Source: a virus
Lineage: Duplodnaviria > Heunggongvirae > Uroviricota > Caudoviricetes
Virus record (IMG/VR): IMGVR_UViG_3300037042_007115
Length of the DNA: 64,000 nt
Reading direction: 5' to 3' (one strand)
Shown piece after piece: positions 1 through 14,903 of this stretch (positions are counted from its first letter, which is position 1; each line of letters opens with the position of its first letter). Under the pieces are notes generated by a model that worked only from the letters and a program-made list of their open reading frames with translations, did not search any database and had not been told where the DNA came from. The position numbers and the translations under genes were made by a program.

Positions 1-201
1 TCAGTACCTGACTGTGATGTTCATATTGCTACAGGATATGCTTTTTCTTCTGGGTTGTGGTTTAGGCACACCTGGGTGGTAAATCCTGCAGATAAGACTT
101 TGTTAGAATGTACACCTACAAAGTTTGACGAGTATTATGGGGTTTGTCTCTCCCATAAAGAGTGTGGTGAATTCATAGAAATACTTGGGGAGGCATAAAC
201 T

Positions 202-468
202 ATGGTTGAGCGAGCTGGGTGTGTTACAGGACCCCGGGGTTTTGGGCCCCGTAAATTTAAGGGGATTATGTATGATCCCTATAAAGTCTACCTATCTAAA
301 CAATGCGACTCTTTCAATCATGAAATACAAAAGCAATATGATTTGGAGAGTCTTGCACAAGCAGAACAAGACCGAGCTACTTTGGTATCAGCAGGAAAGA
401 TAGCCAAACTTGTTAAGAAGAACTTAGGTTCTATCTTAGTTCTTTATATAAGGAGAGTTGAAGTATGA
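202..468 (+). CDS. hypothetical small protein
   Basis: 88-aa ORF from the six-frame track, leading a chain of co-directional, tightly abutting or overlapping ORFs; no recognisable motif. Confidence 0.3.
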   Translation: MVERAGCVTGPRGFGPRKFKGIMYDPYKVYLSKQCDSFNHEIQKQYDLESLAQAEQDRATLVSAGKIAKLVKKNLGSILVLYIRRVEV

Positions 469-875
469 TAGACTATGAAAAAGAACTTAAAAAACTGCCG
501 GAATATCAGGAGCAATATAAGGAACTTCAGAAAGAAATGAAGAAGCTAATAGGGCGGGCTACTAAACTTGAGGAAAAGATTATCGAACTTGAACGGATTT
601 CAGAAGTGTATCTTAAAGTGCCCTTGCATATTTCCTTCTCAAGTGATTATGCCCTTGATGTCGCCGACCTCAGCTACATCAGACATGCACATATCTATCA
701 TAATGCGACTGTACACTCTACCGTTGACAACTGGGGCCTTGAGATCGGAGCCAGAGAGGGGCTAGGACCTTTGGGAACGCACTGGTTGGGTACTGGTCAT
801 ACCAAAGTAGCAGCTATTAATATAGCTAAAGACTGGATTGCCCTGGGCACCTATCCTAAAGAACTTGATGATTAG
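465..875 (+). CDS. hypothetical protein with coiled-coil N-terminus
   Basis: 136-aa ORF; ATGA stop-start overlap with the upstream ORF; N-terminal KELKKLPEYQEQYKELQKEMKK heptad-like pattern. Confidence 0.4.
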   Translation: MIDYEKELKKLPEYQEQYKELQKEMKKLIGRATKLEEKIIELERISEVYLKVPLHISFSSDYALDVADLSYIRHAHIYHNATVHSTVDNWGLEIGAREGLGPLGTHWLGTGHTKVAAINIAKDWIALGTYPKELDD

Positions 876-923
876 CTAGCTTTATATGGTTTTACGCCAT
901 ATTTCTATGTATATAAAGGTGTC
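875..923 (+). promoter_or_regulatory. promoter-family copy A (TAGCTTTATATGG...TATGTATATAAAGGTG)
   Basis: One of five related ~40-50-bp elements immediately upstream of a start codon. TATA-like box plus AAGGTG Shine-Dalgarno. Confidence 0.5.
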
Positions 924-927
924 AAAA

Positions 928-1407
928 ATGGAGAATACAACCAACCCCTGCCCATATATCCCAGTTGATGGGATTGCGGCAGATAAAAACCACCCTGGTT
1001 TAGGAAGCTGCCGGACTTGTATAGGAATTTATGACTGCCCAACTCGCCTCCAGGAAACCTTCTATCCGAGGCCTAACCATACCTGGGAAGCCAAAGCTAC
1101 CTTTGAGTACGCTACCCTACTCTGGGTTAAAGAAATTCCGCCCATGAAAACACAGAGGGCCCGCTGGTGGCTCACTGTCTGGATAGGGGGCAGCGAGTTT
1201 GTAACAGACTGTGCAGAGAAAGAGGATGATTACAAGTGCGATGCTTCTGGCCGGTTTGCTGAGGAAGCAGCCAAGAAGCGGGCTCTTATGGATATGATAG
1301 AGGAATTATCCAGCTCGCTTATTGCTGCAGTATCTGTACCACACGGAATTAACTCGCTCACCTTGACAATTCTCAGGACAAAAGATGGTTCGGGAGCCTG
1401 GGGTTAA
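928..1407 (+). CDS. hypothetical Cys-rich protein (first gene behind promoter-family copy A)
   Basis: Track ORF is 886..1407. Start is placed at the ATG that follows the conserved AAAGGTGTCAAAAATG Shine-Dalgarno-like element shared with copy B. The protein has many Cys/His (CRTCIGIYDCP). Confidence 0.45.
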   Translation: MENTTNPCPYIPVDGIAADKNHPGLGSCRTCIGIYDCPTRLQETFYPRPNHTWEAKATFEYATLLWVKEIPPMKTQRARWWLTVWIGGSEFVTDCAEKEDDYKCDASGRFAEEAAKKRALMDMIEELSSSLIAAVSVPHGINSLTLTILRTKDGSGAWG

Positions 1408-1595
1408 TGTCAAACTCTGACAGCCCCAACTCTTGCCCCCAGTGTGGGAAAGCAGACCACATCAACTGGGTTGCCCCACTGGGCGACCTTTGGAGTGAGG
1501 TTCACAATCGCCGGGTCAACGCCCAGCTCTACCAGTGTGCCGACTGTAAATCCGTCTTCCCCTTCCCAGCTCTAGAGCCCTACGGGAGGTCTTAA
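1407..1595 (+). CDS. zinc-ribbon protein
   Basis: 62 aa with CPQCGK...CADCKS (two CxxC pairs); ATGA-type stop/start overlap. Confidence 0.4.
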   Translation: MSNSDSPNSCPQCGKADHINWVAPLGDLWSEVHNRRVNAQLYQCADCKSVFPFPALEPYGRS

Positions 1596-1597
1596 TC

Positions 1598-1837
1598 ATG
1601 GCTAAGAATTTTAGCCTAATGTTAAATGGGGAATCAATCCCAAGAATTTCTTATCTCCCAGTGGATGGTGTAGAGAAGATAGAGGCACTGATGGACAAGA
1701 TGGCTGAATTACTCCAGCAGGGAAAAATATTCCAGTTTACCCTTGTTCCACTCGACTACGGGAACCGCTCAACCCTTAAGATCCCCGGAGACTTCAATAG
1801 TACTCATGTTTGTATTACAGCAAGGGATGGTTATTAA
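1598..1837 (+). CDS. hypothetical protein
   Basis: 79-aa ORF with a GGAGG-like sequence upstream. Confidence 0.4.
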   Translation: MAKNFSLMLNGESIPRISYLPVDGVEKIEALMDKMAELLQQGKIFQFTLVPLDYGNRSTLKIPGDFNSTHVCITARDGY

Positions 1838-1839
1838 AT

Positions 1840-2115
1840 ATGGATATCTATAGGGAACTTGGTATACCTGCTCATCCGACCCAGAGGTATTTAACTGTGG
1901 TGGTTGAGCTAGGCTATTATGCCGTGATGGACATCCTTCAGCAACATGTTGCTCTGGATCATGGGATTAAAAAGAAGCAGGTTGAGGTTAATTCGATGGA
2001 TGGGAATGGCGGGAAAAGAACCCAGGTTCGTATCCCCCTATATTTGGCCGACTTTTCCGGGATAGGTAAAGTTCTCTATGACCTTGATGACAAGGAGGCT
2101 AATGACCCCCGTTGA
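1840..2115 (+). CDS. hypothetical protein
   Basis: Track ORF is 1810..2115. Internal ATG at 1840 (MDIYRELGIP...) is chosen because it lies just after the upstream stop. Confidence 0.35.
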   Translation: MDIYRELGIPAHPTQRYLTVVVELGYYAVMDILQQHVALDHGIKKKQVEVNSMDGNGGKRTQVRIPLYLADFSGIGKVLYDLDDKEANDPR

Positions 2116-2248
2116 AGAGACTAGAGCAGCTGCTTTGCAGGCAGCTTGCATTTGGTCTCAGGGTAAGCAAATTCCAGTAGAACTGGTTGTTGGTATTGCA
2201 GCAAAATATTTTTGGCCCTATATCAAGAATGGGAGTGTACAATAGATT

Positions 2249-2587
2249 ATGGTCCGTGACTTAGGCAGAATTACGCTAGGTGTATACCCCCGCAAGGTTG
2301 TGGGTAAAGATACATCTTTTGAATATGACTATGAAAATAAAGCCATTCTTCGTGGGCCCAAAAAGGGACGAATCTATCAGGAGAGAAAAAGGAATGGTAA
2401 GAAAACCATTTATCTTTATTTTGATGAGATTATTCCGGTTCTTCCCATAGGCAACCAAGATTATATTGCCCTTGACTCAGATGAGTATGAGTGCGAATTA
2501 ATTCACATCAAGAAAGGGACTACAATATTAGTTGGTATTGGTGAAACCCCAGGGGGACACCCGATAGTTGTTCATATAGGAGTATGA
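2249..2587 (+). CDS. hypothetical protein
   Basis: 112-aa ORF. Confidence 0.4.
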   Translation: MVRDLGRITLGVYPRKVVGKDTSFEYDYENKAILRGPKKGRIYQERKRNGKKTIYLYFDEIIPVLPIGNQDYIALDSDEYECELIHIKKGTTILVGIGETPGGHPIVVHIGV

Positions 2588-2664
2588 TCAATTACCCTGG
2601 GTTCTCCTTCATATAGTCTGACATCAATATTTTTTTAATTACCACCAATTGAGGTTTTCTTTAA

Positions 2665-3438
2665 ATGCAACCTTTTATCAATATGACCACACAAGATGGC
2701 CGCTGTATCCTAGGGGGTACTACTCGGGCTTGTATTGCAGATTGCATTGAGTGCAGTACTTACCAGCGGCATCTTAAAAAACTAGAGAAAACTCTAGTTT
2801 CTGAACAGCAAGATACAACTACTGTTGGAGATAAGATCTCTGGGGAACTTGTCTTTCGCTTTGATGCAATAGATATTACAGACTTTTTAAAATATCGTAG
2901 ATTAATCCGGGAGATTACTGGGTTCAAAGATAGAGTTAAGATGGCTTATTTTATGGTAGAAGAGCAAGCTCTTTTGAATTCTATACACCCAGAAAAGACT
3001 ATGCCTGCTCAAGGCTTAACCTTAGAAGAAAAGGAGGAAAAATTCCGGAAGCTTGTTCATCCAAACCCTAGTGGTAGTACGGGTAAGAAAATCAGTGTAG
3101 ATGTAACCTTCAGAAAAGACCGTTGTGATGATGGTAGGAGACTCCTTAGAGGCCAGCACCAAGAGCCTACCCTGGGAATTTATGGTGGACCAAAAGGTAA
3201 AGCTAGGACTTTCTGTATGACCTTCCCAGGCCCAGAGGAAGAAGTTATCAATGCTTATTTGAGAGCTTTTAAGTTGACCCGGGTTCCGCATCATGTTATC
3301 TTAGCAGGCTGGAAATTTTATCATCCATCCGTAATTATGCCTGGACAGATTGTCACGAAAGAGCCCGGGCAACAAGGGGGGATGGTAACTACCCCGGACC
3401 AGACTAATACCTCAACTAGAAAAGAATTTAAGGGATAA
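2665..3438 (+). CDS. hypothetical protein (257 aa)
   Basis: Long ORF preceded by an AT-rich region and GAGG; no recognisable domain. Confidence 0.5.
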   Translation: MQPFINMTTQDGRCILGGTTRACIADCIECSTYQRHLKKLEKTLVSEQQDTTTVGDKISGELVFRFDAIDITDFLKYRRLIREITGFKDRVKMAYFMVEEQALLNSIHPEKTMPAQGLTLEEKEEKFRKLVHPNPSGSTGKKISVDVTFRKDRCDDGRRLLRGQHQEPTLGIYGGPKGKARTFCMTFPGPEEEVINAYLRAFKLTRVPHHVILAGWKFYHPSVIMPGQIVTKEPGQQGGMVTTPDQTNTSTRKEFKG

Positions 3439-3458
3439 CTCCTCATTTTCTTTATATC

Positions 3459-3698
3459 ATGTCTGGCACACGCCGTATCTACAACCGGGCCAAGCAGTGG
3501 TTCAAAGTCCAGATCACTAGCTGGGCTGATGGGTATGAAGATGGAATGTTCAGCCTAAGGCACTGGGGTCTCCACCCATACAAGCAGTATGATACCTTTC
3601 ACTGCCATTGCAGTTGGTGCAGGCCTAAATCATATGAACACGGTTCACTGAGGGTACAGCACAAGGCTGAGATCCGCAGGGAATTGGCAAACCTCTAA
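3459..3698 (+). CDS. hypothetical protein with His/Cys cluster (HCHCSWC)
   Basis: 79-aa ORF. Confidence 0.4.
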   Translation: MSGTRRIYNRAKQWFKVQITSWADGYEDGMFSLRHWGLHPYKQYDTFHCHCSWCRPKSYEHGSLRVQHKAEIRRELANL

Positions 3699-3715
3699 TT
3701 TCTGCTTTTTTGGTT

Positions 3716-3753
3716 AGATATATATGTTTTAGCGTAGCATAGCTATGTATACA
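3716..3753 (+). promoter_or_regulatory. promoter-family copy B (ATATATGTTTTAGCGTAGCATAGCTATGTATACA)
   Basis: Shares GTTTWRCG...AGCATAG.TATGTATA...AAGGTG with copies A and C-E. Confidence 0.5.
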
Positions 3754-3764
3754 AAGGTGTCAAA

Positions 3765-3971
3765 ATGGAAAACTCACTCAACGTAAATAATAGCCGGGTC
3801 TTTGTCCCCTGTGTCTTACCCGGGTTCACTCCCTGTGACCACCGCTGTGTTGCTACTGGTAGGCCTTCAGAAAATGTAATGCGGGTTGAAGTCTGGTGTA
3901 TGTGCTGGCGAGAAAACCACTCAAAGGATAAGGTATTCCACCACTGCGAGAAGGAGTTTAAGGTTGGTTAA
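3765..3971 (+). CDS. hypothetical Cys-rich protein (behind promoter-family copy B)
   Basis: 68 aa. Starts right after the conserved CAAAGGTGTCAAAATG element. N-terminus MEN... resembles the copy-A gene. Confidence 0.45.
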   Translation: MENSLNVNNSRVFVPCVLPGFTPCDHRCVATGRPSENVMRVEVWCMCWRENHSKDKVFHHCEKEFKVG

Positions 3972-3974
3972 ACT

Positions 3975-4175
3975 ATGCGGAAAATAGTTCCCATGAGAAT
4001 AATCGCAACTCTCTACCCAGACAGGACAGAAGATTGTTCACGGGCTTGTTATCGGTATGACACTTGTAAGTGTTGTGATGCACCTACTTGTAAGTGCAGT
4101 GACCCCTCAACAAATCATTGTTATCATTGTGGGAAAGTATGTGGAACGTGTCCAATACGGACTAGAAGATGCTAG
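3975..4175 (+). CDS. Cys-rich small protein (about 12 Cys in 66 aa)
   Basis: CxxC, CKCC and CKCS clusters; metal-binding-like. Confidence 0.4.
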   Translation: MRKIVPMRIIATLYPDRTEDCSRACYRYDTCKCCDAPTCKCSDPSTNHCYHCGKVCGTCPIRTRRC

Positions 4176-4435
4176 GTGGAACTATAATGGATGAACGAGT
4201 ACAGGAATGGCTTAATACTCTTGAGGATGATGATAGGCTTCACCACCTGGGAGAGTTTTATACCCATTTAACAAAGAAAGCTTGGAGGACACCTCGGGGT
4301 AAGAAAACAAAAGCCTTTATGGTGTGGTATCACCGGGAGTTTCCTCAGCTCATAGATTACCCGCTTGTTCTTCCCGGGTTTATGATCATCCAAGACTGGG
4401 ACAGTACAGATTTTATCCAGAGAGTGAAATCATGA
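4169..4435 (+). CDS. hypothetical protein
   Basis: 88-aa ORF; overlapping start. Confidence 0.4.
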   Translation: MLGGTIMDERVQEWLNTLEDDDRLHHLGEFYTHLTKKAWRTPRGKKTKAFMVWYHREFPQLIDYPLVLPGFMIIQDWDSTDFIQRVKS

Positions 4436-4764
4436 ACAACCAAACTTTGAGAAAAGAGTGTCCCATTGCTTGGACAAAAGAAGATGGCCCATACCCTTGT
4501 GCCTTCTTCCAGGGGGGTAGGATATGCATCTGGCCCGCAGATGTAGTTAAGGGCCCATGTGTTCCGATGCACCTCCCTAAGTATCGCCATGCACAGACTA
4601 CTACCACTGTTCCCTGCTGTGAGTGCGGCGGACCAGCAGAGATACAGACAGGCCTCCTTGAAAGGTACCAAGCTACAGGCGGCTTAAAGGTTTGGTGCCG
4701 TGGATGTAGCAAGGTAGTTCTTGACGGTGAAGCTTTAGCTGCCCATATTAGAGGTGATTACTGA
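4432..4764 (+). CDS. hypothetical Cys-containing protein
   Basis: Track ORF is 4324..4764. Internal ATG at 4432 gives an ATGA overlap with the upstream stop. CCECGG motif present. Confidence 0.4.
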   Translation: MNNQTLRKECPIAWTKEDGPYPCAFFQGGRICIWPADVVKGPCVPMHLPKYRHAQTTTTVPCCECGGPAEIQTGLLERYQATGGLKVWCRGCSKVVLDGEALAAHIRGDY

Positions 4765-5165
4765 TGGTACGTGTTGAAAGATGGGAAATGTGCCCCGATA
4801 CTGTTCTGGTTTACCCAGAGTGCCCTTATGCAGGAAAATTTAGGCCTGCTTGGGGAGGAGAAACTGGCGGTGAATGCCCCTGTCACCATATAGATGCAGT
4901 TTGGCCTCATTGCGGCTTGAACTACGCCGAGGGTTGTCCCTTTGACCTTAAAGCAGAACTATCAAGTATGGTGCCACAGGGGTTTGCTGAAATAATAGTA
5001 ACCCGTAGGGAGAGAGATTTCCATGCTTGCTTGAAAGACCACCCAGGAATCTGGGGTTGTGGAAGATCTCACTATGAAGCGGTAGGAAATGTAATCTCCG
5101 CTCACTGGGAAATATTCAAAGTAAGGGTGAATCATCAGTGGGGTGTAGATGACTGTAAAGCATAA
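4764..5165 (+). CDS. hypothetical Cys/His-rich protein
   Basis: 133 aa with CPxC and CPCHH motifs. Confidence 0.4.
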   Translation: MVRVERWEMCPDTVLVYPECPYAGKFRPAWGGETGGECPCHHIDAVWPHCGLNYAEGCPFDLKAELSSMVPQGFAEIIVTRRERDFHACLKDHPGIWGCGRSHYEAVGNVISAHWEIFKVRVNHQWGVDDCKA

Positions 5166-5670
5166 GGCCCAAACTACCCAGTCTGGCTATGGGCTTAGGC
5201 ATATTAAGTATGGTAGGTTACTTACTTTTTCATGCCGGCCCACAGAGCGTGGGTGCGATGGTCCATCTGAGATTTATGAGCTCTCCTACTGTAGCGGGGG
5301 TTCCGAACCCATTTGGGTAGTCGAAGATAAATTATCCGCCTCCTTGGCCAGAGTTCATACTCCGGTGTGGTATGCTTGCTCATATGATGCCCCTATGAAT
5401 CCGTATAGTCCAGAAGAACTTGAGGTTGTTAAGGTAGAAATCCAAACTAATCTGGAAGAGCCCTCAGATATTCCAACAGAGCTTGAGTATTTAGCTCAGA
5501 GATATAATGACCCGCGACTCAGATCCTACCAGCCCCAACACTATGAGTATGTCTTATCAGAGATGGCAAAGTGGCCCCATAGGTATGAGAAGACCCACTA
5601 TTCCATAGGTGAACTCAAGATGCTGCGCTGGGACCAGGAAGCAGCAGATAAGGTGGACTATGACAAATAG
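5149..5670 (+). CDS. hypothetical protein
   Basis: 173-aa ORF. Confidence 0.4.
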   Translation: MTVKHKAQTTQSGYGLRHIKYGRLLTFSCRPTERGCDGPSEIYELSYCSGGSEPIWVVEDKLSASLARVHTPVWYACSYDAPMNPYSPEELEVVKVEIQTNLEEPSDIPTELEYLAQRYNDPRLRSYQPQHYEYVLSEMAKWPHRYEKTHYSIGELKMLRWDQEAADKVDYDK

Positions 5671-6178
5671 AATCCCACTAATCCGAGTTATTTCTGGGGG
5701 TCAGACCGGTGCTGATCAAGGCGGGCTTCAAGCAGCTTATGAGCTTAGCATTCCCACCGGGGGTTGGACAATTAAAAACTATGGTACAGAAGTAGGCCCA
5801 ATGCCTGAACTAGCCAAATACGGCTTACATTGTCTTGATACTAATAACTATGTGGCAAGAACTGCTCTTAATGCTCAGCAAGGTCACCTAACTATCTGGT
5901 TCGGCTCTATGGACTCAAGGGGATTTCAAGCTACTCGGAGGGAGTGTCAATTAGCTCATAAGCCTTTTGAGGTTATGACCAATAAAGCTAGGAGTATCAT
6001 AGAGACTAGAATCTTTTTATATTATAGGAATTGCAAAGACCCTGAGTTTATTTTGAATGTAGCCGGGAACCGTGAATCAAGCAGCCCGGGAATCCACCAG
6101 GAGGTTTATCAGTCTCTTCTGGCTGTTCTATCTTCTTTAGTTTTATTGCGGGATCAGGGCTGGGACACCATTAAGTAG
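5660..6178 (+). CDS. SLOG-superfamily protein (YpsA / molybdenum-cofactor-carrier-like Rossmann fold)
   Basis: N-terminal VISGGQTGADQGGLQAA matches the SGGQTG(A/V)D signature of the YpsA/MoCo-carrier SLOG family. Start is moved to the ATG at 5660, which overlaps the upstream stop. Confidence 0.5.
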   Translation: MTNRIPLIRVISGGQTGADQGGLQAAYELSIPTGGWTIKNYGTEVGPMPELAKYGLHCLDTNNYVARTALNAQQGHLTIWFGSMDSRGFQATRRECQLAHKPFEVMTNKARSIIETRIFLYYRNCKDPEFILNVAGNRESSSPGIHQEVYQSLLAVLSSLVLLRDQGWDTIK

Positions 6179-6237
6179 CATAACATGATATTTAGTTATA
6201 CCAACCGATTGATAAATAGGGCTGGTATGGAATAAGT

Positions 6238-6441
6238 ATGACAAAAACGACAACTAAAGTAAATAGGGCAGAATGCCGGATTGGCGATAATGTTTTCTGC
6301 TTAATTAGTACCGTGTATAACCAGATGTGCCGGGATGGCTTTGAGAAGGAGGCAAATGAGATGCAGAAGAAGATAGATTCTGATGCTGAATCCCCCGCTG
6401 ATGTACTCAAAATTTGTAAAGAGTATGTTACTTTCATCTAA
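6238..6441 (+). CDS. hypothetical small protein
   Basis: 67-aa ORF. Confidence 0.35.
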   Translation: MTKTTTKVNRAECRIGDNVFCLISTVYNQMCRDGFEKEANEMQKKIDSDAESPADVLKICKEYVTFI

Positions 6442-6450
6442 GGTGATAGA

Positions 6451-6801
6451 ATGCCAGCCGATGGGAAATGTTATTCGGATACTTGGAAGTTTTTGTTAGA
6501 GGGGTCAAAACAATTCCCCCATGACAAACTTTCTACCATGGACTATGTACGCGTAGTGCATGGTAAAGTTCTTGGTGGGTGTGGTAAGAGGATTGACCAT
6601 GCCTGGGTTGAGTTTGGTACTGGGCCATTCAAGTGGGTTTGGGAACCGCAGCTTGACTGTGTCTTTAACGCCGAGAAGTATTACACTGAGACTAGTGCTA
6701 TTCCGGCCTATCAGTTGACCTCGGATGAGCTCTTAAAGCTTAGTTTCCGATTCAAGAACTACGGGCCATTCTCAGTTAAAGAACGGTTGGTGTTAAAATG
6801 A
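6451..6801 (+). CDS. hypothetical protein
   Basis: 116-aa ORF with GGTGATAGAATG Shine-Dalgarno-like sequence. Confidence 0.4.
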   Translation: MPADGKCYSDTWKFLLEGSKQFPHDKLSTMDYVRVVHGKVLGGCGKRIDHAWVEFGTGPFKWVWEPQLDCVFNAEKYYTETSAIPAYQLTSDELLKLSFRFKNYGPFSVKERLVLK

Positions 6802-7009
6802 CCCTTTGTACTGAATGTGAATATGGTAGCTTGTGTTTAATGGCTCGAACAGTGGAGGATTATACTGCCAAAGATGGGCGGTTGCATCATATTATTGGTT
6901 GTACCGAGACAGAGATGCTTCATGGAGCCGAGTTAACCGCGGGTGAAGCATATGCGGCAATTAGGTGCCACAGGTAGGCACTAGATTACAAGAATATGGA
7001 GGTAAATGA

Positions 7010-7360
7010 ATGGCACTTGAAGCATATCAACATGAGATTGGTATTGTAAAAGCAAAGATTATCGAACAAAAGGTACCCACCAAGTATGCGAAGGGGTTAG
7101 CAATTTTGAGTGTCTTTGCTTGTAATTATGGCGGGGGAGATGCTCTGGCCGGAATATTTCTTGATACTGCTATGAGGCAGGATATGGAACTTGTACAGAT
7201 CTTTGAGATCGAGGCTGGACTAGAGCCTGGAGTAGGACTGGGGTGGAGCAGAATACGCGGGATTTGGGGGGCCTATAAGAAGGATTACCAGATTTTTAGG
7301 GCCCTTGATCTTGGTGCTGTTCAAGGTAACTTATTAAAAAGCATAAAGGATACGGAATAG
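7010..7360 (+). CDS. hypothetical protein
   Basis: 116 aa; GGAGGTAAATGAATG ribosome-binding site. Confidence 0.45.
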   Translation: MALEAYQHEIGIVKAKIIEQKVPTKYAKGLAILSVFACNYGGGDALAGIFLDTAMRQDMELVQIFEIEAGLEPGVGLGWSRIRGIWGAYKKDYQIFRALDLGAVQGNLLKSIKDTE

Positions 7361-7366
7361 GTCTTT

Positions 7367-7561
7367 ATGGACTACTACCCGCCCTTAGTTGGGAATAGAG
7401 AAAAGAAGATGTGTGGGGCCAAGAAGCGGCATCTTACCCATAAATCTGCTTTGGATGAGAGGAGTGCTCATATGAGTCAAGATTCTACTGCAGATATTCG
7501 TATCTATGAATGCCCTTATTGCCACTATTTCCATGTAGGTAGGCACAGGGATATGCCATGA
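7367..7561 (+). CDS. zinc-ribbon protein (CPYCHYFH)
   Basis: 64-aa ORF. Confidence 0.35.
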   Translation: MDYYPPLVGNREKKMCGAKKRHLTHKSALDERSAHMSQDSTADIRIYECPYCHYFHVGRHRDMP

Positions 7562-7712
7562 CTCTGGGTTGTACATTACTTCCCCAGCTAGGGAGTCCAT
7601 GTGATATCTGTAATTTTGCCAACTCCCACTGTTCTGTGTGTCCAATAGGGTTTAACAAGATTGCAGAAGAACCCTTTAAGTCTCAGAAATCTAATAAGAA
7701 TAATACACATAG

Positions 7713-8018
7713 TTGTGTTATCTATCGGAGATAAATATGTCTACAAAAACTATTAAATGTAATTGTTCCAACGAATACCAAGATGAGGTATATGGTGTGG
7801 GGAATAGAGCCGCCAATGAGACAAGCAATGGTCAGTATCGATGTACCGTCTGTGGAGTGGTAGTAGGATCTGCCCAAACTGTTACAGTATCTAAGAAAGA
7901 GGCAACTAAAGAGAGTCCTACTAAGGCTGGGCCTAGTAAGAGTAAAAAGGCGGAGAAGAAGGGGGAGAAGTCTACAAAGCTTTCAGCAAAGAAAAGTCTG
8001 AAAGGGGGAAAGAGGTAA
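7713..8018 (+). CDS. zinc-ribbon protein with histone-H1-like Lys-rich C-terminal tail
   Basis: CNCS...CTVCG ribbon followed by KSKKAEKKGEKSTKLSAKKSLKGGKR. Confidence 0.45.
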   Translation: MCYLSEINMSTKTIKCNCSNEYQDEVYGVGNRAANETSNGQYRCTVCGVVVGSAQTVTVSKKEATKESPTKAGPSKSKKAEKKGEKSTKLSAKKSLKGGKR

Positions 8019-8150
8019 AACTATGAATGTTGTTACTCTTTGTAGGTGGGAGTTTTTTTGTCCCTTCTGTAGAGAGCCAGAGGCTAAATTTCCCGGTGCA
8101 CCGTTAGTTTATTATTGCTGCCAGAAACCCTGTGAATACCCAGGCAGAAT

Positions 8151-8576
8151 GTGTATGTTTATCCAGAAGGGTGGGCAGCGACCATGATTATATATATTAT
8201 TGCCGGTATTATCATGTCCTCAGTACTCATGATAATTCTTTGTGCTGGAATTATTTCTTTTGGGAAATTAATTGCTATTACCCCGGATGGTAGAGAGTTG
8301 CGCGGTGAAGTTAGAGATATAGAAGCAAAGAAGCTATGGAGTTCACCTGAGCAAATGCCAAAATACTTTGCAGGGGGCCTGGGGATTATTTTTGTCTGTG
8401 GATGCGGGATATTGCTATCTGGGGGTTCGATAATACATTATATTTTTGGGGGCATGACAATTTTTACTTCCCTCTTTTTTGCAGGGGGTCTTATGGCTCA
8501 TGAATTGTTAATGTATAACCAGATGATATCTAACATTAAGAGTCAAAGGGATTATGCGGAGGCGATTAGGTCATGA
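8151..8576 (+). CDS. membrane protein (multiple TM helices)
   Basis: 141 aa, hydrophobic segments. Confidence 0.4.
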   Translation: MYVYPEGWAATMIIYIIAGIIMSSVLMIILCAGIISFGKLIAITPDGRELRGEVRDIEAKKLWSSPEQMPKYFAGGLGIIFVCGCGILLSGGSIIHYIFGGMTIFTSLFFAGGLMAHELLMYNQMISNIKSQRDYAEAIRS

Positions 8577-8755
8577 AGGGCCACCTTTTTTTAGTTACTA
8601 GGAAAGAGCTGATACCACACCCGATGCATATCCCAGAACCCCTCGAATATTTAATAGGGGGAATTTTGATTATAATCAGTATCCCAATATGGATTGCAAT
8701 AGTGACCTATGTGGTCATAAAAGCATTGATTAACAAAGGTGATTTTTATGCATGA
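8573..8755 (+). CDS. small membrane protein
   Basis: 60 aa with TM segment IGGILIIISIPIWIAIVTYVVI. Confidence 0.35.
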   Translation: MKGHLFLVTRKELIPHPMHIPEPLEYLIGGILIIISIPIWIAIVTYVVIKALINKGDFYA

Positions 8756-8948
8756 TTGTTTTAAAACAGATACCCCTCCAAATAGGAGAATTGCAGCGTG
8801 TTGTTATTCGTGTGCGAGTGGAGTATTTAATATAAAGTGTGGGTGGTATTGTGGATGCTATTGTACAAAATATGATAGTGAGATATCAGATACTTCGATA
8901 TGCGACGAATATGTAAGACGGAATATGAATGGAGGGAAGAGAGTGTGA
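8739..8948 (+). CDS. Cys-rich small protein
   Basis: 69 aa with CCYSC and CGWYCGCYC. Confidence 0.35.
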   Translation: MIFMHDCFKTDTPPNRRIAACCYSCASGVFNIKCGWYCGCYCTKYDSEISDTSICDEYVRRNMNGGKRV

Positions 8949-9112
8949 CGGAACTTGAAGATATTGTAATTGAACTGGACAAACGAATTATTAAGACGAA
9001 TAATCTTATTGCCGCAAAACCATCTCTACTGCGAGATGGGATGAAACTTGCATATCAAGATATACGGGAGTATATTCAATACAAGCGAAAAATAAAAGGA
9101 GAGTTGCCGTGA
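8900..9112 (+). CDS. hypothetical protein
   Basis: 70-aa ORF. Confidence 0.35.
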   Translation: MRRICKTEYEWREESVTELEDIVIELDKRIIKTNNLIAAKPSLLRDGMKLAYQDIREYIQYKRKIKGELP

Positions 9113-9297
9113 CGACTACTATCACATCACTTGTGCTATCAGTGCTAGGTGCTGTGATTATGCTATTGGCAGTTAAGGACGGTGTGGTTTTCGATATGAA
9201 ATTATTGATTATGGTTGTCGTTTCATCTACAGCAATTATTTGTTCGTGGTTGGCAAGAATTGAAGCGTCGATGGAGTATCACGGAAATGAACTTTGA
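9109..9297 (+). CDS. small membrane protein
   Basis: 62 aa, two hydrophobic helices. Confidence 0.35.
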   Translation: MTTTITSLVLSVLGAVIMLLAVKDGVVFDMKLLIMVVVSSTAIICSWLARIEASMEYHGNEL

Positions 9298-9475
9298 TTA
9301 TCTTATCGGTTGTGAATCTAAAGCAAAACACCTCTCAAAAAACGCTGCTTTAGTTGCAATGAAGAAATGCGTACCCAAAGAAGAATTGCCAACATTCGAT
9401 GTGTATCAATGCAAATGTTGTAATTTCTGGCATATAGGACACAAGAAGGGAACCCGCACCAAGGAGCAACCATGA
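9287..9475 (+). CDS. zinc-binding small protein ending ...RTKEQP
   Basis: Track ORF is 9215..9475. Start is set at the ATG at 9287, which overlaps the upstream stop. CKCCNFWH motif. The 3' end lies inside the 23-bp repeat. Confidence 0.4.
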   Translation: MNFDYLIGCESKAKHLSKNAALVAMKKCVPKEELPTFDVYQCKCCNFWHIGHKKGTRTKEQP

Positions 9476-9476
9476 C
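9454..9476 (+). repeat. 23-bp direct repeat CCGCACCAAGGAGCAACCATGAC, copy 1
   Basis: Encodes the ...RTKEQP* terminus of the upstream gene, an AAGGAG ribosome-binding site, and the ATG of the downstream gene. Confidence 0.6.
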
Positions 9477-10026
9477 ACCCCCACAAAAAGAATACATTGA
9501 GATTAAAAAAGATGATCTAATTGAGTTTATTAAATCCGTTGGTTTTAAGATTGAAGAACAAATCTCTGTAAATACTGGACAGCACACTTTAGAAGTAAGT
9601 GGATATCCAAACACAGGAGATATATTTTTATTTGATTATACCCGTTCCCGTTCCCACCCCGCCACCCCCCTTGCACTACAGAAAAATGAAAAGGTAATCA
9701 AAAATGCCAAACTCCGTATTCGTCAATTATTCCTTGATGATAGCAAATGCGAACTCTGTGAAAAGGTTACGGAAGAGGATGGTTATGATGGGAATAATGA
9801 AGGGTGTGAAAAAGGACTATGCATAGAATGTGCAATCCACAAATCGTTGGTAGAGTTATCAGCCACCATCCGCAACGCCACGCTGGATTTACTTAAACCC
9901 GCACTTCTGTGTTTTTGCCCTCACAATTATGGATACACCGGTAGATGTCTCAATGATAAGTTGCATTGCGACGAGTGCATAAAATTATGGGTGGAAGAAT
10001 CCCTCCGCACCAAGGAGCAACCATGA
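9472..10026 (+). CDS. Cys-rich protein ending ...RTKEQP
   Basis: 184 aa. CELCE, CEKGLCIEC, CFCPHNYGYTGRC and CDEC clusters. The 3' end lies inside the second copy of the 23-bp repeat. Confidence 0.45.
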   Translation: MTPPQKEYIEIKKDDLIEFIKSVGFKIEEQISVNTGQHTLEVSGYPNTGDIFLFDYTRSRSHPATPLALQKNEKVIKNAKLRIRQLFLDDSKCELCEKVTEEDGYDGNNEGCEKGLCIECAIHKSLVELSATIRNATLDLLKPALLCFCPHNYGYTGRCLNDKLHCDECIKLWVEESLRTKEQP

Positions 10027-10027
10027 C
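10005..10027 (+). repeat. 23-bp direct repeat CCGCACCAAGGAGCAACCATGAC, copy 2
   Basis: Exact second copy with the same coding arrangement. Confidence 0.6.
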
Positions 10028-10153
10028 TACTAAAATACGATTTGAAGTATTAATGGCAGTTAAAGATGGTAAGGACTTTAATAAAGTGTGTACTAAAGCA
10101 GAGGAACGACTTAAGAAAGTGGTTGGTGTAAAAGAAGTCACACTACTTGTTGC

Positions 10154-10453
10154 GTGGGGGAATGTCTGATGACTGACCAGAAGCCCAACTGCTCTGATTG
10201 CACAAACGACGACTGCCCGATTCACCCAAACGGATTACCATTTCCAGAGGAAGTACGGTATGAAATCAACGTCATACAAGAACACACAAAAGAGATGGGT
10301 TGCCTCTCTAATCCCGGTGCAAGGGAATGGTTGATGAAAGATGTGATCGAGGAACTGGAACGCCGGGGGAATGGGCATCCAACATCTAGTTATATCGAAG
10401 GGTTATTTGACGGATATGACGAGGCAATTCCCTTGATAAGAGGTGAGAAATGA
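10154..10453 (+). CDS. Cys-containing small protein (CSDCTNDDCP)
   Basis: 99-aa ORF. Confidence 0.4.
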   Translation: MGECLMTDQKPNCSDCTNDDCPIHPNGLPFPEEVRYEINVIQEHTKEMGCLSNPGAREWLMKDVIEELERRGNGHPTSSYIEGLFDGYDEAIPLIRGEK

Positions 10454-10704
10454 GCGCATTTAAAAAATGGGTCTACTGGCACCGCGTTATATGGGCTGAC
10501 AATGATAGTGAAAAAGGCGCGGAATTAAAACTCAGCTCTTTACTGGGATTAAACGGGAAAACTCCATCATGTGCTCGCATGGTCACAGATGACGTGAAGA
10601 AATCTATTGAACTCAAAGACTATGTTAAACTCCAGTATCTTGGCCGGCTGCTGCGTACTGCAACCGCTGAAGAGGTTGTTGCAGCATTCCCAAAGGAGAA
10701 ATGA
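10450..10704 (+). CDS. hypothetical protein
   Basis: 84-aa ORF; ATGA overlap. Confidence 0.4.
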   Translation: MSAFKKWVYWHRVIWADNDSEKGAELKLSSLLGLNGKTPSCARMVTDDVKKSIELKDYVKLQYLGRLLRTATAEEVVAAFPKEK

Positions 10705-10740
10705 TCTTGCAGATTATCCCCTCAATAACACGAATGGTAC

Positions 10741-11011
10741 AATGCCCCGAAAAATCAGAGAGCGTGAAAAAATGACAAAACACGGAGCAGACACAGTAGA
10801 ACAAGATTTTATACCACCAACTGCAGAAGAGAATAGGCTGGCACTACGCATACCAGAATATACTATCAATGAGTTGATAACGAAACTTTCAAGCCAATAT
10901 TCTGTCCGTGTGCTCACAGTGGATAAAAACGAGCCATATGTTATTGCCAGCAAAGAAAACCACTGTATTTTCGGAGAGGGGGCAGTAAAAATATTGGTGG
11001 TGAAAGAATGA
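10741..11011 (+). CDS. hypothetical protein
   Basis: Track ORF is 10607..11011. An in-frame ATG at 10741 is chosen to avoid a ~100-nt overlap. Confidence 0.35.
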
Positions 11012-11193
11012 GACTTTTTTCTACATATCTTTGCCGATACTGTAAAAAATACCTTCAATCGAGAGGTTGCGCCTACGAACTCAAATATGAAGAAACTGGA
11101 TTATGCGAAGGGTTTGAACAGAAGTTGGTGGGTGTTAAGATGCCAAAAGAAAAACCATATGACAAATCTACATGGTTGGGTGAGAAGGAATGA
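11008..11193 (+). CDS. Cys-containing small protein
   Basis: 61-aa ORF with CRYCKK. Confidence 0.35.
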   Translation: MRLFSTYLCRYCKKYLQSRGCAYELKYEETGLCEGFEQKLVGVKMPKEKPYDKSTWLGEKE

Positions 11194-11448
11194 TAACACG
11201 ACAAGGAGTATGCCCCATTGCGGCACAAAATCTATTGGAGCAAACCACCTTGTGTCCGGTATGCTGTCTGCGAGAAGTTAAGATGGACGGGGTGAAAGAA
11301 TGAACTTTGAACCAATTTACGCTGAGTGTAAAAAGGTTAAATTAACCTGGGAAACATGCAATGAAAAATACTGCTGTGATGAAGGAGAAGAATGTTGGTT
11401 CGCCTCCAAAGATTACTATAATGACTGCGGAAAAGGGAGTGTGAAGAA

Positions 11449-11700
11449 ATGACTTATAATGCAAGTGATCCTTTAGTTTATGAAAGAATACGGGGAGATA
11501 TGCAAGAAATTCGTGAAATTGCCGATTATATAAAGGCGGCTACAATTCAGGCAGAAAATCTATTACTTTCCTCAAAGATTGACTCTTATGAGTGGGAACG
11601 GCAGATGGGTAAGATCCACACTGCACGAAAAAGAATACGGTGGATAATCTGTGATAAACGTGGAAGATTTGATGAGAACAAATGGTTGGTGTTACTATGA
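11449..11700 (+). CDS. hypothetical protein
   Basis: 83-aa ORF. Confidence 0.4.
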   Translation: MTYNASDPLVYERIRGDMQEIREIADYIKAATIQAENLLLSSKIDSYEWERQMGKIHTARKRIRWIICDKRGRFDENKWLVLL

Positions 11701-11954
11701 GTAATTGTGATAAATGTGGTAAAGAGGTGGGTAATTTGTTTTGCGGGCATTGCAGGGCAGAAATACAGAACCGACATAATTTGGTTCCATTGCTATATTA
11801 TGACAAACTATCAAAGGGGTATCGTGCAGGATGTTCTTGTATCGAGTGTCCTAGCAATGAAAATCGAGTTTGTATAGCTGTAAATATGAGTATTGAACAA
11901 ATTGCATTTCATGAATATGATGGTGACAATTGTATTCGTCAAGTGTGTGGATGA
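11697..11954 (+). CDS. zinc-ribbon protein (CDKCGK...CGHC)
   Basis: Track ORF is 11682..11954. Start is set at the ATG at 11697, which overlaps the upstream stop. Confidence 0.4.
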   Translation: MSNCDKCGKEVGNLFCGHCRAEIQNRHNLVPLLYYDKLSKGYRAGCSCIECPSNENRVCIAVNMSIEQIAFHEYDGDNCIRQVCG

Positions 11955-11989
11955 TGCACCGAAACTATCACTTTAACACTACTTTAGTG

Positions 11990-12028
11990 AGCTTTATAAG
12001 GTTTAGCGCAGCATTGTAGAGTATAACA
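11990..12028 (+). promoter_or_regulatory. promoter-family copy C (AGCTTTATAAGGTTTAGCGCAGCATTGTAGAGTATAACA)
   Basis: Near-identical to copies D and E over about 35 nt. Confidence 0.55.
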
Positions 12029-12039
12029 GGTGAAACTCT

Positions 12040-12594
12040 ATGGCGGACATAACCTTTCAAGAGCAGTCCCTATCCCGGTTGAAAAAACTTAAGGCATTGG
12101 CCGAAAGGGGAGTAGGCGGAGAGAAAGAGAATGCACAGATGCTCCTTGAGCGGCTTTGTGACAAATACCAAATCTCACCAGATCAGGTTGAATCTTCAGA
12201 TGAGAAGAAACTGCGTTGGTTCCGCTATAGGAAGGGACCAGCTCTTAGGAAGCTTCTTGCGCAATGCATATTTAAAACTCTTGGGAAGGATAGTAAAACA
12301 TTTGGACATGCACATACCAGAGCTAGGGAGTTTGCTGCAGAGTGTACAGCAGCGGAAGGAATAGAAATAGAGCTGGACTATGATTTCTATGCTGATGCTT
12401 TACAGAAAGAGATGACTAGAATGTTAGAGATGTTCATCCAGAAAAATAGCATCTTTCCACCTAACGTAGATTTAGACAGCAGTGGGAAAGAGATTTCAGA
12501 AGAGGATATGCTCCTATACCGGAGTATCAAGAAGCAGACTCGGGTATTACGGATTGGTAACTCCCCGGAGGAAGTTATAGAGGAGAGAGAATAA
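12040..12594 (+). CDS. DUF2786-like protein (behind promoter-family copy C)
   Basis: N-terminal LKKLKALAERGVGGEKENAQMLLERL resembles the DUF2786 signature (LxKLLALAExxxxExEAxxAxxKAxxL), common in phage and plasmid proteins. Confidence 0.5.
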   Translation: MADITFQEQSLSRLKKLKALAERGVGGEKENAQMLLERLCDKYQISPDQVESSDEKKLRWFRYRKGPALRKLLAQCIFKTLGKDSKTFGHAHTRAREFAAECTAAEGIEIELDYDFYADALQKEMTRMLEMFIQKNSIFPPNVDLDSSGKEISEEDMLLYRSIKKQTRVLRIGNSPEEVIEERE

Positions 12595-12783
12595 TGGGCC
12601 AGCAAGAAGCCATAGATGCATTACGTGAAAAGCGTGATGAATGCGACAGAGAAATTAGTCATGAGATGGATGAAAACTTCCAGAAAAGCTGGAAGGATAA
12701 GAAAGAAGCATATCAGTACGCTCTTAAAGTGCTAGGGGCTATTTGATACACTGGCCAAATCTTGGCCTTATTCTCTTTTAGTA

Positions 12784-12821
12784 AGCTTTATAAGGTTTAA
12801 CGCAGCATAGTTGTATGTAAC
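12784..12821 (+). promoter_or_regulatory. promoter-family copy D (AGCTTTATAAGGTTTAACGCAGCATAGTTGTATGTAAC)
   Basis: Identical to copy E over 38 nt. The ATG follows directly. Confidence 0.55.
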
Positions 12822-13133
12822 ATGACGTACTCAGAGAATGGAAGAGATCAGTGGGACCAGGCAAGCTTACTTGCTCGTAAGAATTCAGAGCAGTTAGTTT
12901 CCCTTAGGGGCCGCTGGGAAGATGAGCAGGAATATGAAAACTTTGATGAATACATCAAGGTTATTACAGCCCTGTTTCCGGGCTTTGAACTTTTTGCCTT
13001 CAAGAAGTCGAAGTTTAGCTTTAAGATCAAGATGCCAAGGCCGGTCCCGGATATGATTGTTCGGGTAGGTTTGACTCAAGTTACTTGGAAAATGGACATT
13101 ACCAAGGAACAGCGAGCTAGCATCAAGAAATAA
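12822..13133 (+). CDS. hypothetical protein (behind promoter-family copy D, near-leaderless)
   Basis: 103 aa. The ATG directly abuts the conserved ...GTATGTAAC element with no Shine-Dalgarno sequence. Confidence 0.45.
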   Translation: MTYSENGRDQWDQASLLARKNSEQLVSLRGRWEDEQEYENFDEYIKVITALFPGFELFAFKKSKFSFKIKMPRPVPDMIVRVGLTQVTWKMDITKEQRASIKK

Positions 13134-13155
13134 CTCAATCCCTCTTCTTTTAACT

Positions 13156-13194
13156 AGCTTTATAAGGTTTAACGCAGCATAGTTGTATGTAACA
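13156..13194 (+). promoter_or_regulatory. promoter-family copy E (AGCTTTATAAGGTTTAACGCAGCATAGTTGTATGTAACA)
   Basis: Identical to copy D. Followed by AGGTG and an ATG. Confidence 0.55.
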
Positions 13195-13204
13195 AGGTGT
13201 TGAA

Positions 13205-13327
13205 ATGACCGAGGACAGTATGAAAGTTTGGAACCTATGTTGGAACGAGCCCCCAGTAGGGCTGGCGATATACATAACCTGTATGGTCTTGATTGTAACG
13301 GGTTTAACTTTTTGTGGGGTCATTTAA
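13205..13327 (+). CDS. 40-aa hydrophobic peptide (behind promoter-family copy E)
   Basis: ATG 11 nt after AAGGTG. The peptide is MTEDSMKVWNLCWNEPPVGLAIYITCMVLIVTGLTFCGVI. It is not in the ORF track (under 60 aa). Confidence 0.35.
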   Translation: MTEDSMKVWNLCWNEPPVGLAIYITCMVLIVTGLTFCGVI

Positions 13328-13329
13328 TT

Positions 13330-14295
13330 ATGACTGAGGACAACCAAACCCCCGAAGTAGTTCAGGTATTAACCCCTGAGCAGCTTGAGCAGGAAAAGAA
13401 AGACTTGCTCAGCAAGTATTGCCACCTGAATTCCAGGATGACCTATCCAGATGCAGAGGATATTCTCAAGGCGCAGGGTATCGACTACATCCGGAAGCGT
13501 ATCAAGAAGTTGGAAAAACGCCAGGCAAAGCCTAAGGTGCCTAAGGACCTCTCAATCCTTATCAAGGGGATTGCCACAGCCTACTACTTGAATGACCAGC
13601 CGGATATGCTTGATTTCATTATGAAGGACCTGCAGTACCTCGGATTCACCGACATTACCTGTGCTCCCAAGAAAGAGGGCGACTATATATTCGAGCATAT
13701 CATCACCTTCTCAGGCCGGCACTCAGACCCCGACATCCAGGCTGTCTTCGCAAAGACTCCCCGGACAGATGTACTGTACCAGTACAAACTCGCCTATGGT
13801 AAACTGCTCAGCATACCTTTCGGCTCTACCGGTCAGAAAGAAGCAGACTGCAAGAATATCCAGGGGATCAGCAACCTGGCCTACAAGATCTCCGGCAATG
13901 GCTCAAAGGACCATCCAACCTATCTCCAGAAGACTCTCGGAATTACCGAGGCAAAAGACCATGTTCGGGATACCTACCACTGGACACCCATCTGGGAAGC
14001 AGAAGATGTAGCCATCCAGCAGGCACAGCGGGAGGCAGATGAGCTTAAAGAAGCAAAGCGGGTACAGCAAAGCCGGGCAACAGAGGAACTTGACCGAGCA
14101 GCAGCAGCCATTATCTCATACCTAAGCAAAGCTCAAAGGTATTATGATGAGTTCAATGAAGAGATGCCAGTACAGAAAGGTCACTCAGGCGGATATTCAG
14201 TTGGGGTACCTATGCTCACACTTACCTCCACTGGGACGGTTCTGCCAACTCTTGCCTTGACTCTCAACGGCCAAGAATGTATCCCAGAAGAATAA
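13330..14295 (+). CDS. hypothetical protein (about 321 aa)
   Basis: Track ORF is 13228..14295. Start is moved to the ATG at 13330, immediately after the stop of the 40-aa peptide. It also begins MTED. No recognisable domain. Confidence 0.45.
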   Translation: MTEDNQTPEVVQVLTPEQLEQEKKDLLSKYCHLNSRMTYPDAEDILKAQGIDYIRKRIKKLEKRQAKPKVPKDLSILIKGIATAYYLNDQPDMLDFIMKDLQYLGFTDITCAPKKEGDYIFEHIITFSGRHSDPDIQAVFAKTPRTDVLYQYKLAYGKLLSIPFGSTGQKEADCKNIQGISNLAYKISGNGSKDHPTYLQKTLGITEAKDHVRDTYHWTPIWEAEDVAIQQAQREADELKEAKRVQQSRATEELDRAAAAIISYLSKAQRYYDEFNEEMPVQKGHSGGYSVGVPMLTLTSTGTVLPTLALTLNGQECIPEE

Positions 14296-14891: not shown

Positions 14892-14903
14892 ATTTTGGGT
14901 ACC

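Follow-up and report, generated by a model that had tools for sequence, protein, structure and literature searches.

Repeated TATA-box promoter-type cassettes in the ORFan-rich arm of a ~178-kb uncultured virus genome, putatively of a methanogen virus

Introduction

Repeated promoter modules in the ORFan arm of the genome are a known theme of large viruses. In T4-type phages, promoter-early stem-loops (PeSLs) are repeated promoter-plus-terminator modules that lie in ORFan-rich regions and mediate modular shuffling (Arbiol et al. 2010, PMC2839356; Comeau et al. 2014, PMC4122927). In the haloarchaeal myovirus HGTV-1 (Sencilo et al. 2013), named in a 2014 review as the largest genome among the archaeal viruses described by then, a TATA-like stretch together with an inverted repeat precedes most open reading frames (ORFs) of the left arm, according to that review (PMC3950731). 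Here we describe a family of repeated intergenic cassettes in a stretch of 64,000 nt (the window) of IMG/VR record IMGVR_UViG_3300037042_007115, an uncultured tailed-virus-like genome represented by a metagenomic contig of 178,173 bp. As a first-pass annotation made from the letters had proposed, these modules lie between genes, are of promoter type and contain a TATA-like box, and they head transcription units of small ORFan genes. On balance, we favor the reading that each is a complete transcription-unit head, consisting of a TATA-box promoter and a short leader, that is used by the host RNA polymerase of an archaeon, probably of the Methanomicrobiales.

Like PeSLs, the cassettes are short, conserved and repeated intergenic modules in which a host-type promoter would be joined to a signal ending the upstream unit. 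In both families the copies cluster in a plastic, ORFan-rich part of a large viral genome, all five plus-strand cassettes being intergenic and beside ORFans in such a region, and the sub-block mosaicism of the cassettes is compatible with recombination between copies. PeSLs consist of a sigma-70 −35/−10 promoter and a stable G/C-rich stem-loop, whereas the cassettes are of the TATA-box type and match the virus's own promoter consensus; a hairpin stands next to one copy only and no fold is common to the copies. The cassettes are also much sparser (5-7 copies for ~44 or more genes), and what answers here to the recombination and mini-circles of PeSLs is mosaic sub-block similarity alone. HGTV-1 can be compared by description: both are large archaeal tailed viruses, ours putatively so. 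As the review text gives it, the HGTV-1 motif includes an inverted repeat and serves a majority of left-arm ORFs in a virus of Halobacteria, whereas the cassettes share no inverted repeat, precede 5 of ~44 ORFs and belong to a virus of putative Methanomicrobiales. The cassettes work like PeSL and HGTV-1 modules yet fall outside both definitions.

Taken alone, the cassettes change little. Together with a general A(C/G)CTTTAWWW motif and a rule that links box-to-start distance to the Shine-Dalgarno (SD) site, they give a testable promoter model and a transcription-unit map for a ~178-kb virus. Almost nothing is known about viral gene regulation in Methanomicrobiales.

Five cassettes form one repeat family

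The cassettes lie in the plus-strand arm of the window (positions 1-14.3 kb), which holds about 42-44 small genes. Only one ORF of this arm, cpYpsA, has a confident Pfam domain, and many of the small proteins encoded there are Zn-ribbon proteins. Five plus-strand copies, near-identical and ~40-60 bp in size, were confirmed at 878, 3716, 11990, 12784 and 13156, within 3 nt of where the first-pass annotation had placed them. A repeat search returned them as one family (868-916, 3706-3754, 11980-12028, 12774-12822 and 13146-13194), called A to E in this order. Over the 49-nt repeat unit, identity to copy D (100%) was 61% for A, 69% for B and 94% for E. D and E are 100% identical across exactly 39 nt (12784-12822 and 13156-13194), and within 10 nt on either side of this block their identity falls to 10-40%. 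C is 82% identical to D over the 49 nt.

The 16-nt core GTTTAACGCAGCATAG had 4 matches with up to 3 mismatches, compared with a mean of 0.47 in shuffled sequences, none of 100 shuffles reaching 4. An nhmmer profile built from the five copies recovered all of them at E = 6e-14 to 7e-18 and nothing else in the window at E < 0.01. All five copies are intergenic and oriented as the downstream gene, and they end 0-8 nt 5' of the start codons (ATG 928, 3765, 12040, 12822 and 13205).

The search for more copies that the first-pass annotation had called for was run on the window and its flanks (9.8 kb left and 9.2 kb right), so that 83 of ~178 kb were inspected. It gave two diverged members: F on the minus strand (E = 0.012 with the profile) and G, which lies 8.4 kb left of the window in the same virus (L006 1408-1456). 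No others were found by the profile search in the remainder of the flanks. Exact-pattern scans of IMG/VR and of JGI metagenome contigs gave two chance matches only, both in high-GC coding DNA.

The members in the window and the hairpin next to D are as follows.

866-927, plus strand: cassette A, with BRE-like (B recognition element) TAGCTAGC, TATA box at 881-888 (TTTATATG), a spacer with TACGCC, TATGTATATAA at the predicted start region (~911), SD site AAGGTG at 916-921, then ATG 928.
3704-3764, plus strand: cassette B, with a T6 tract at 3706-3711, TATA box at 3719-3726 (TATATATG), spacer TTTTAGCGTAGCATAG, TATGTATACAA, SD site AAGGTG, then ATG 3765.
11978-12039, plus strand: cassette C, with TTTAGTGAGC and TATA box at 11993-12000 (TTTATAAG), spacer GTTTAGCGCAGCATTG, GTATAACAGGTGAAA (SD site), then ATG 12040 of a 184-aa protein.
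12753-12781, plus strand: hairpin GGCCAAATCTTGGCC and pyrimidine/T-rich tract immediately 5' of cassette D, a candidate terminator of the preceding unit.
12772-12824, plus strand: cassette D, with TATA box at 12787-12794 and the 39-nt block 12784-12822 shared with E; no SD site.
13144-13204, plus strand: cassette E, with TATA box at 13159-13166, the block 13156-13194 shared with D, predicted start ~13189 and SD site AAGGTG at 13193-13198.
45868-45932, minus strand: member F, TTTTAACTATATTTAATTGGTTTCACAGCACACTGTTAGGTATAACAGGTGAAATT, 5' of ATG 45867 of a 141-aa protein in the replication/recombination arm; GTATAACAGGTGAAA is common to F and C.

The stop codon of the upstream ORF (873-875) and a mechanically called ORF start (886) both fall within cassette A; the plausible start downstream of A is ATG 928, which AAGGTG precedes. 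In cassette D, the TATA box has its first T 35 nt before ATG 12822, and the mRNA is predicted to be leaderless or to have a leader of up to 5 nt (start ~12817). Among the copies, the hairpin (12753-12767) occurs at D only. Cassette E is followed by ATG 13205 of a 40-aa hydrophobic peptide and then by ATG 13330 of a 321-aa protein.

A public Logan contig (SRR11849211_127948) stops inside cassette D, at ~12813-12822. This end is an assembly effect, as expected where a 39-nt perfect repeat breaks short-k-mer assembly, and is not evidence of a genome end or rearrangement.

The 5' half of the cassettes is the general promoter motif of the virus

The 5' half of the cassette (AGCTTTATAAGGTT) matches a general motif, A(C/G)CTTTAWWWGGTT, which is present 5' of the DNA polymerase gene and many other genes in both arms. 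Where genes follow an intergenic gap, the upstream region recurrently shows a purine-rich stretch, then CC and then TTTAWWW. Gibbs sampling of 55 upstream regions gave the consensus ACCTTTATAAGGTT, with the cassettes and the promoters of PolA (55419), Band_7 (32873) and genes 42576, 46755 and 59742 as top scorers. When the weight matrix was trained on non-cassette sites only, A, C, D and E scored 11.2-11.5 bits, within the top ~25 of 128,000 positions, and TTTAGTGACCTTTATTAT before PolA is almost the same as TTTAGTGAGCTTTATAAG of cassette C. A TATA box of the form TTTATAAG, TTTATATG or TATATATG is present in 5 of 5 copies, and a box of this type lies 5' of at least 15 other genes. The purines before the box are AGTGAG, AGTAAG, AACTAG or AGCTAG plus C in the cassettes and AGTGAC, AAGAAC, AAAAAC or TAGAAC plus C in the general promoters; the stretch is called BRE-like from its letters.

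The first-pass annotation had set the cassettes apart from all other signals of the window. This fails for the 5' half, whose TATA box and GGTT belong to the general motif, and stands for the ~30 nt between the TATA box and the ribosome-binding site, which are the only cassette-specific part.

Two related viruses (L008 and L010; 47-48% GC) were found via a DUF3821 protein and are syntenic with the window at 16-38 kb. Both retain the box of the rhomboid promoter with its 28-31-nt spacing, in diverged flanking sequence, and both also retain the Band_7 box. Sites of the general motif in the window include the following.

16346-16379, plus strand: ACCTTTATAATATA, general motif without cassette body; TATA box 28-31 nt 5' of the GTG/ATG of a rhomboid-like gene; no SD site.
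55447-55460, minus strand: ACCTTTATTATCCC, 5' of the gene for PolA with a uracil-DNA glycosylase domain (UDG-PolA; start 55419); preceded by TTTAGTG, like cassette C.
46780-46793, minus strand: ACCTTTATTAGGTT, a 14-mer of the cassette 5'-half type, beginning 38 nt 5' of ATG 46755; no SD site.
42614-42627, minus strand: ACCTTTATTTGCCC, preceded by a T-rich tract and beginning 51 nt 5' of ATG 42576; SD site present.
32920-32933, minus strand: ACCTTTAAATGGTA, 5' of the Band_7/SPFH gene (start 32873); its equivalent in L008 is ACCTTTAAGTGTTA.

The motif is quasi-palindromic around the TATA box (ACC/AGC-TTTATAA-GGT) at 878-891, 11990-12003, 12784-12797 and 13156-13169 and in general promoters, so that its reverse complement also scores as promoter-like. 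Symmetric protein contacts or bidirectional activity may be the cause.

Box-to-start distance and presence of a Shine-Dalgarno site

Distances given here run from the box's first T to the start codon. SD sites are lacking in six genes at 28-35 nt: the gene of cassette D (35), the rhomboid-like gene 16380 (28-31), 46755, 20587, L006 677 and L006 6769. The PolA gene, at 38 nt, has a borderline AGGA only. At 42-59 nt, 11 of 13 genes have an SD site (GGAG, GAGG, AGGT or GGGA), 35201 and 22993 being the exceptions, and cassettes A, B, C and E, all with SD sites, fall in this class at 46-47 nt. A start ~30 nt after the beginning of the box would account for this: an SD site would have room on the mRNA only where the distance exceeds about 42 nt, and shorter spacing would give leaderless mRNAs. 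The archaeal TATA box is centered near −26/−27. The geometry is that expected of an archaeal BRE/TATA promoter, unlike that of a bacterial −10 element, and it places the predicted starts of the five cassettes at ~911, 3749, 12023, 12817 and 13189.

To the extent that sequence can show it, the cassettes answer to the description of an archaeal core promoter. They have in common with it the box TTTAWWW, a purine-rich stretch 5' of the box, a G/C-richer spacer followed by an A/T-rich start region, a start predicted ~30 nt after the first T of the box, and the coexistence of leaderless and SD-led genes. They differ in that ordinary archaeal core promoters are unconserved between TATA box and start, whereas the cassettes are up to 100% identical, and in the ACC...GGT quasi-palindrome around the box, which is absent from the textbook consensus. 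The extra conserved element right after the TATA box, here GGTT(T), recalls the SIRV1 and SIRV2 rudivirus promoters of Sulfolobus, in which Kessler et al. reportedly described in 2004 a virus-specific conserved trinucleotide that follows the TATA box closely; sequence and host phylum are different.

According to the reading favored here, a cassette would be ordered from 5' to 3' as follows. Often a T-rich tract, in D a hairpin and a T tract, would end the upstream unit. The purine-rich, BRE-like TAGTRAG plus C, the TATA box TTTATAWG and a spacer of ~22 nt would follow. Initiation would take place in the A/T-rich start region GTATRTAA, ~30 nt after the first T of the box, and a leader of 15-17 nt with the SD site AGGTG would come last; in D the leader would be absent and coding would begin almost at the start. 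The five copies would divide the ORFan-rich plus-strand arm into units of ~2.8, 8.2, 0.75, 0.35 and 1.2 kb. The BRE/TATA half would be the ordinary promoter type of the virus, and the family would be defined by the extra conservation of spacer, start region and leader. This conservation would come from the spread and homogenization of one promoter module by inter-copy recombination in a PeSL-like manner, to which a shared regulator, bound between TATA box and start, may add.

Pyrimidine/T tracts often stand 5' of promoters, and runs of T5 or longer are ~fourfold enriched in the intergenic 8% of the plus-strand arm (7 of 23). T tracts 5' of promoters would weakly fit archaeal oligo-T termination.

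Bacterial promoter types, RNA elements and duplicated remnants

A consensus scan of positions 1-17000 and a manual scan showed no sigma-70 −35/−10 pair on the plus strand of any cassette, and among the cassettes only B holds a sigma-70 consensus match, on its opposite strand. A sigma-70 promoter was rejected, as no TTGACA-like −35 and TATAAT-like −10 elements lie 16-18 nt apart and co-oriented with the gene. By inspection, neither spacing nor sequence fits a T4 MotA box or late promoter, and this likeness was rejected as well.

The first-pass annotation had offered an element-specific promoter as one identity of the cassettes. This is not borne out: neither a viral RNA polymerase nor a sigma factor came up with Pfam in the window, with PHROGs in 10 large ORFs or among precomputed Pfam matches for the flanks.

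A 5'-untranslated-region RNA element had been suggested for the conserved core, and this did not find support. No Rfam match was obtained in the window; single folds of the five leaders were all different (z-scores −2.05 to +0.93), and RNAalifold gave zero consensus pairs on the seven-member alignment. In the preferred model the GTTTAACGCAGCATAG core is upstream of the predicted start and hence would not be transcribed.

It is extremely improbable that the cassettes are non-regulatory remnants of a duplicated coding segment or mobile element. Such an origin would account for the repetition itself and nothing beyond it, while the copies are all intergenic and co-oriented with the downstream gene. 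The proteins downstream are dissimilar and identity stops at the cassette borders. The neighbors on both sides are not paralogous: when 69 proteins were compared all-against-all by blastp, the only match was a weak pair unrelated to the cassettes. The copies have neither terminal inverted repeats nor target duplications. The possibility that duplicated coding DNA had given rise to the cassettes, which the first-pass annotation had itself raised, can thus be set aside.

A probable methanogen host

The following ORFs bear on the host.

27388-28059, plus strand: ORF of a secreted protein with the N-terminal part of DUF3821 (28.5 bits against a Pfam cut-off of 23).
37915-38172, minus strand: MC1-like ORF, an 86-aa basic protein (Pfam MC1 20.3 bits against a cut-off of 23).

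The homologues in L008 and L010 likewise match DUF3821, and the three proteins have in common a signal peptide, a Thr/Pro-rich linker and a C-terminal membrane anchor. A cryo-electron tomography study on the S-layer of Methanospirillum hungatei gives DUF3821 as exclusive to Methanomicrobiales (PMC11641113). This reported restriction of the S-layer domain speaks for a methanogen host, and a fragment of the anaerobic ribonucleotide reductase NrdD in the window fits an anaerobic host. An archaeal host, probably of the Methanomicrobiales, is likely. At ~178 kb the genome would be unusually large for an archaeal virus. There was no nucleotide match to the window in the phage collection, and the carrier genome, as a ~178-kb putative methanogen virus without close relatives in IMG/VR or the phage collection, is more notable than the cassettes.

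Several points weigh against this host and the promoter reading tied to it. The likely host is deduced mainly from one domain match and from promoter geometry. Scans of genome collections with AIM24 and the DUF3821 alignment returned nothing, and matches to DUF7239 and DUF7339 were below threshold. The identity of the MC1-like ORF as an MC1 chromatin protein was not confirmed: a word-index search found the ORF itself only, and a profile search against the PDB put MC1 at E = 0.19. The polymerase and the SNF2 helicase have their best database relatives in bacterial phages, at 36-43% identity, which is not decisive because the phage collection holds few archaeal viruses. A viral RNA polymerase, which a dedicated promoter of the T7, N4 or phiKZ type would require, may be encoded in the ~95 kb outside the part read. 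The distance rule was drawn from ~20 sites, some with uncertain gene starts, and all transcription starts are predictions from the letters. Of the 23 T5 runs, 16 are within coding sequence. Finally, protein-based scans of IMG/VR found no relatives of the plus-strand arm (two of its ORFs were among the queries), so the cassette body is seen in one virus only.

Two further searches touched the host question. An NCBIfam scan for archaeal-specific families was uninformative, and an exhaustive search with the MC1-like ORF returned a small family of proteins of 84-101 aa without Pfam assignment.

The same phage relatives of the replication proteins would suit a virus of bacteria. The TTTATAAG box would then be a −10-like or phage-specific element recognized by a sigma factor or RNA polymerase that the phage encodes, transcription would start a few nt after the box, and GTTTAACGCAGCATAG...GTAACA would be a shared 5' leader of ~30 nt; we consider both the box and the leader so construed quite unlikely. 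The 14-nt motif with its nearly invariant first A does recall dedicated phage promoters, and the polymerase gene could lie outside the 83 kb inspected. Against this, most boxes lack the A−11/T−7 pattern of −10 elements and have neither a −35 partner nor a TGn extension. Genes whose box is 28-38 nt from the ATG are systematically without an SD site, though a leader of 20 nt could hold one, and a shared leader would be without conserved structure. The Pfam and PHROGs scans gave no RNA polymerase or sigma match, and the DUF3821 domain indicates a methanogen.

Conservation downstream of the TATA box

The favored promoter reading leaves the conservation of the cassette-specific block to be explained, and two non-exclusive explanations, each compatible with it, were considered. 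By one, the block from about −21 to +10 is an operator, bound by a viral or host regulator that switches the units of the ORFan arm jointly. Archaeal repressors sited downstream of the TATA box block polymerase recruitment. Conservation does exceed the need of a core promoter, both in the perfect 39-nt block of D and E and in the similarity of C to D. ACGC(C/A) is at a fixed +14 to +17 from the box in A-E, is shifted by 1 nt in G and reads ACAG in F; the rhomboid promoters of the window and of L010 have it too. Four of the five copies contain CATA-N2-4-TATG dyads, and the small Zn-ribbon proteins of the plus-strand arm are candidate regulators. However, no inverted repeat, dyad or direct repeat was found conserved in all copies, the spacer of A differs from those of C, D and E at half of the positions, the regulator is a candidate only, and recent duplication or gene conversion explains the pattern equally well. 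An operator seems possible but doubtful.

By the other explanation, the cassettes are short patches of homology for insertion, deletion and shuffling of ORFan genes, and this exchange maintains their similarity. Different pairs of cassettes share different sub-blocks: the spacer of B has 81% identity with those of C, D and E and 50% with that of A, whereas over the 3' part identity is 92% between B and A and 85% between C and F. Such mosaic similarity suggests recombination between copies. The identical 39-nt blocks of D and E bracket the gene at 12822-13133 as direct repeats. The arm itself consists of ~44 small genes almost without database relatives, and the virus encodes a Sak4/PD-(D/E)XK/DUF669 recombination set. 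PeSLs (PMC2839356, PMC4122927) and the HGTV-1 motif (PMC3950731) are precedents. At five to seven copies for ~44 genes, the cassettes are much sparser than PeSLs, though, and the break of the Logan contig at D is the expected effect of assembly and not evidence of rearrangement. We regard a recombination role as tentative, with a standing similar to that of the operator. That both apply, with the ~30-bp block serving as operator of a virus-encoded regulator that times the ORFan arm (an archaeal counterpart of a phage early-gene regulon) and the modules acting also as recombination linkers, is unlikely. If the host assignment is true, the 39-bp block is a ready probe for a viral regulator, and the gene flanked by D and E is a test case for PeSL-like shuffling in an archaeal virus.

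Genomic context and additional observations

Proteins identical to those of the window are present in the assembly of run SRR11849211, listed in a paper as a Lake Zurich metagenome. The contig with the nearest homologue of cpYpsA (L003) is not syntenic and has neither cassettes nor the promoter motif.

The remainder of the window is chiefly minus-strand and carries genes of replication, recombination and nucleotide metabolism. The replication and recombination set comprises UDG-PolA with an intein, the SNF2 helicase, a PD-(D/E)XK nuclease, Sak4 and DUF669. The UDG-PolA gene (51547-55419, minus strand) encodes an N-terminal family-4-type UDG domain and a 3'-5' exonuclease domain, and the intein (Intein_splicing/Hint) is within the polymerase domain. 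Both the polymerase and the helicase are similar to proteins of Serratia and Pseudomonas phages in which the polymerase gene adjoins a dCMP deaminase gene. Nucleotide metabolism is represented by the NrdD fragment and four genes, which form a set of the thymidine/deoxyuridine base replacement or hypermodification type at 60497-63418 and 32959-33582 (both minus strand).

60497-61066, minus strand: dCMP deaminase.
61545-62228, minus strand: thymidylate-synthase-like protein.
62648-63418, minus strand: dUTPase_2.
32959-33582, minus strand: dTMP-kinase-like protein.

ARAGORN called a tRNA-Leu(CAA) with a 3-bp D stem at 28416-28498 (plus strand), which is below the Rfam tRNA gathering score; at the corresponding position, L008 and L010 carry a tRNA-like sequence.

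Three further repeats were seen in the window. An 18-nt tandem repeat of ~4 copies (CTGCCGGTTTCTTCTCGG, 26096-26167) lies within a minus-strand ORF (26076-26516) and encodes a short peptide repeat. A second intergenic repeat, in the minus-strand arm, is a 53-nt direct repeat with 96% identity (18752-18804 and 19048-19100). Within it are an imperfect hairpin (CCCATT...TCTGG / CCAGA...AATGGG) and a T5 run but no TATA box, and two adjacent small genes have their starts overlapped by it; a role as terminator or regulatory hairpin is possible. In the plus-strand arm, a 38-nt repeat with 74% identity (6782-6819 and 11681-11718) spans two gene junctions. At each of them, one gene, whose product ends in ...LV(L)K/L, overlaps the beginning of another for a small Cys-rich (CxxC) protein. 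A gene pair of the ORFan arm may thus have been duplicated long ago, although blastp detected no paralogy at the protein level.

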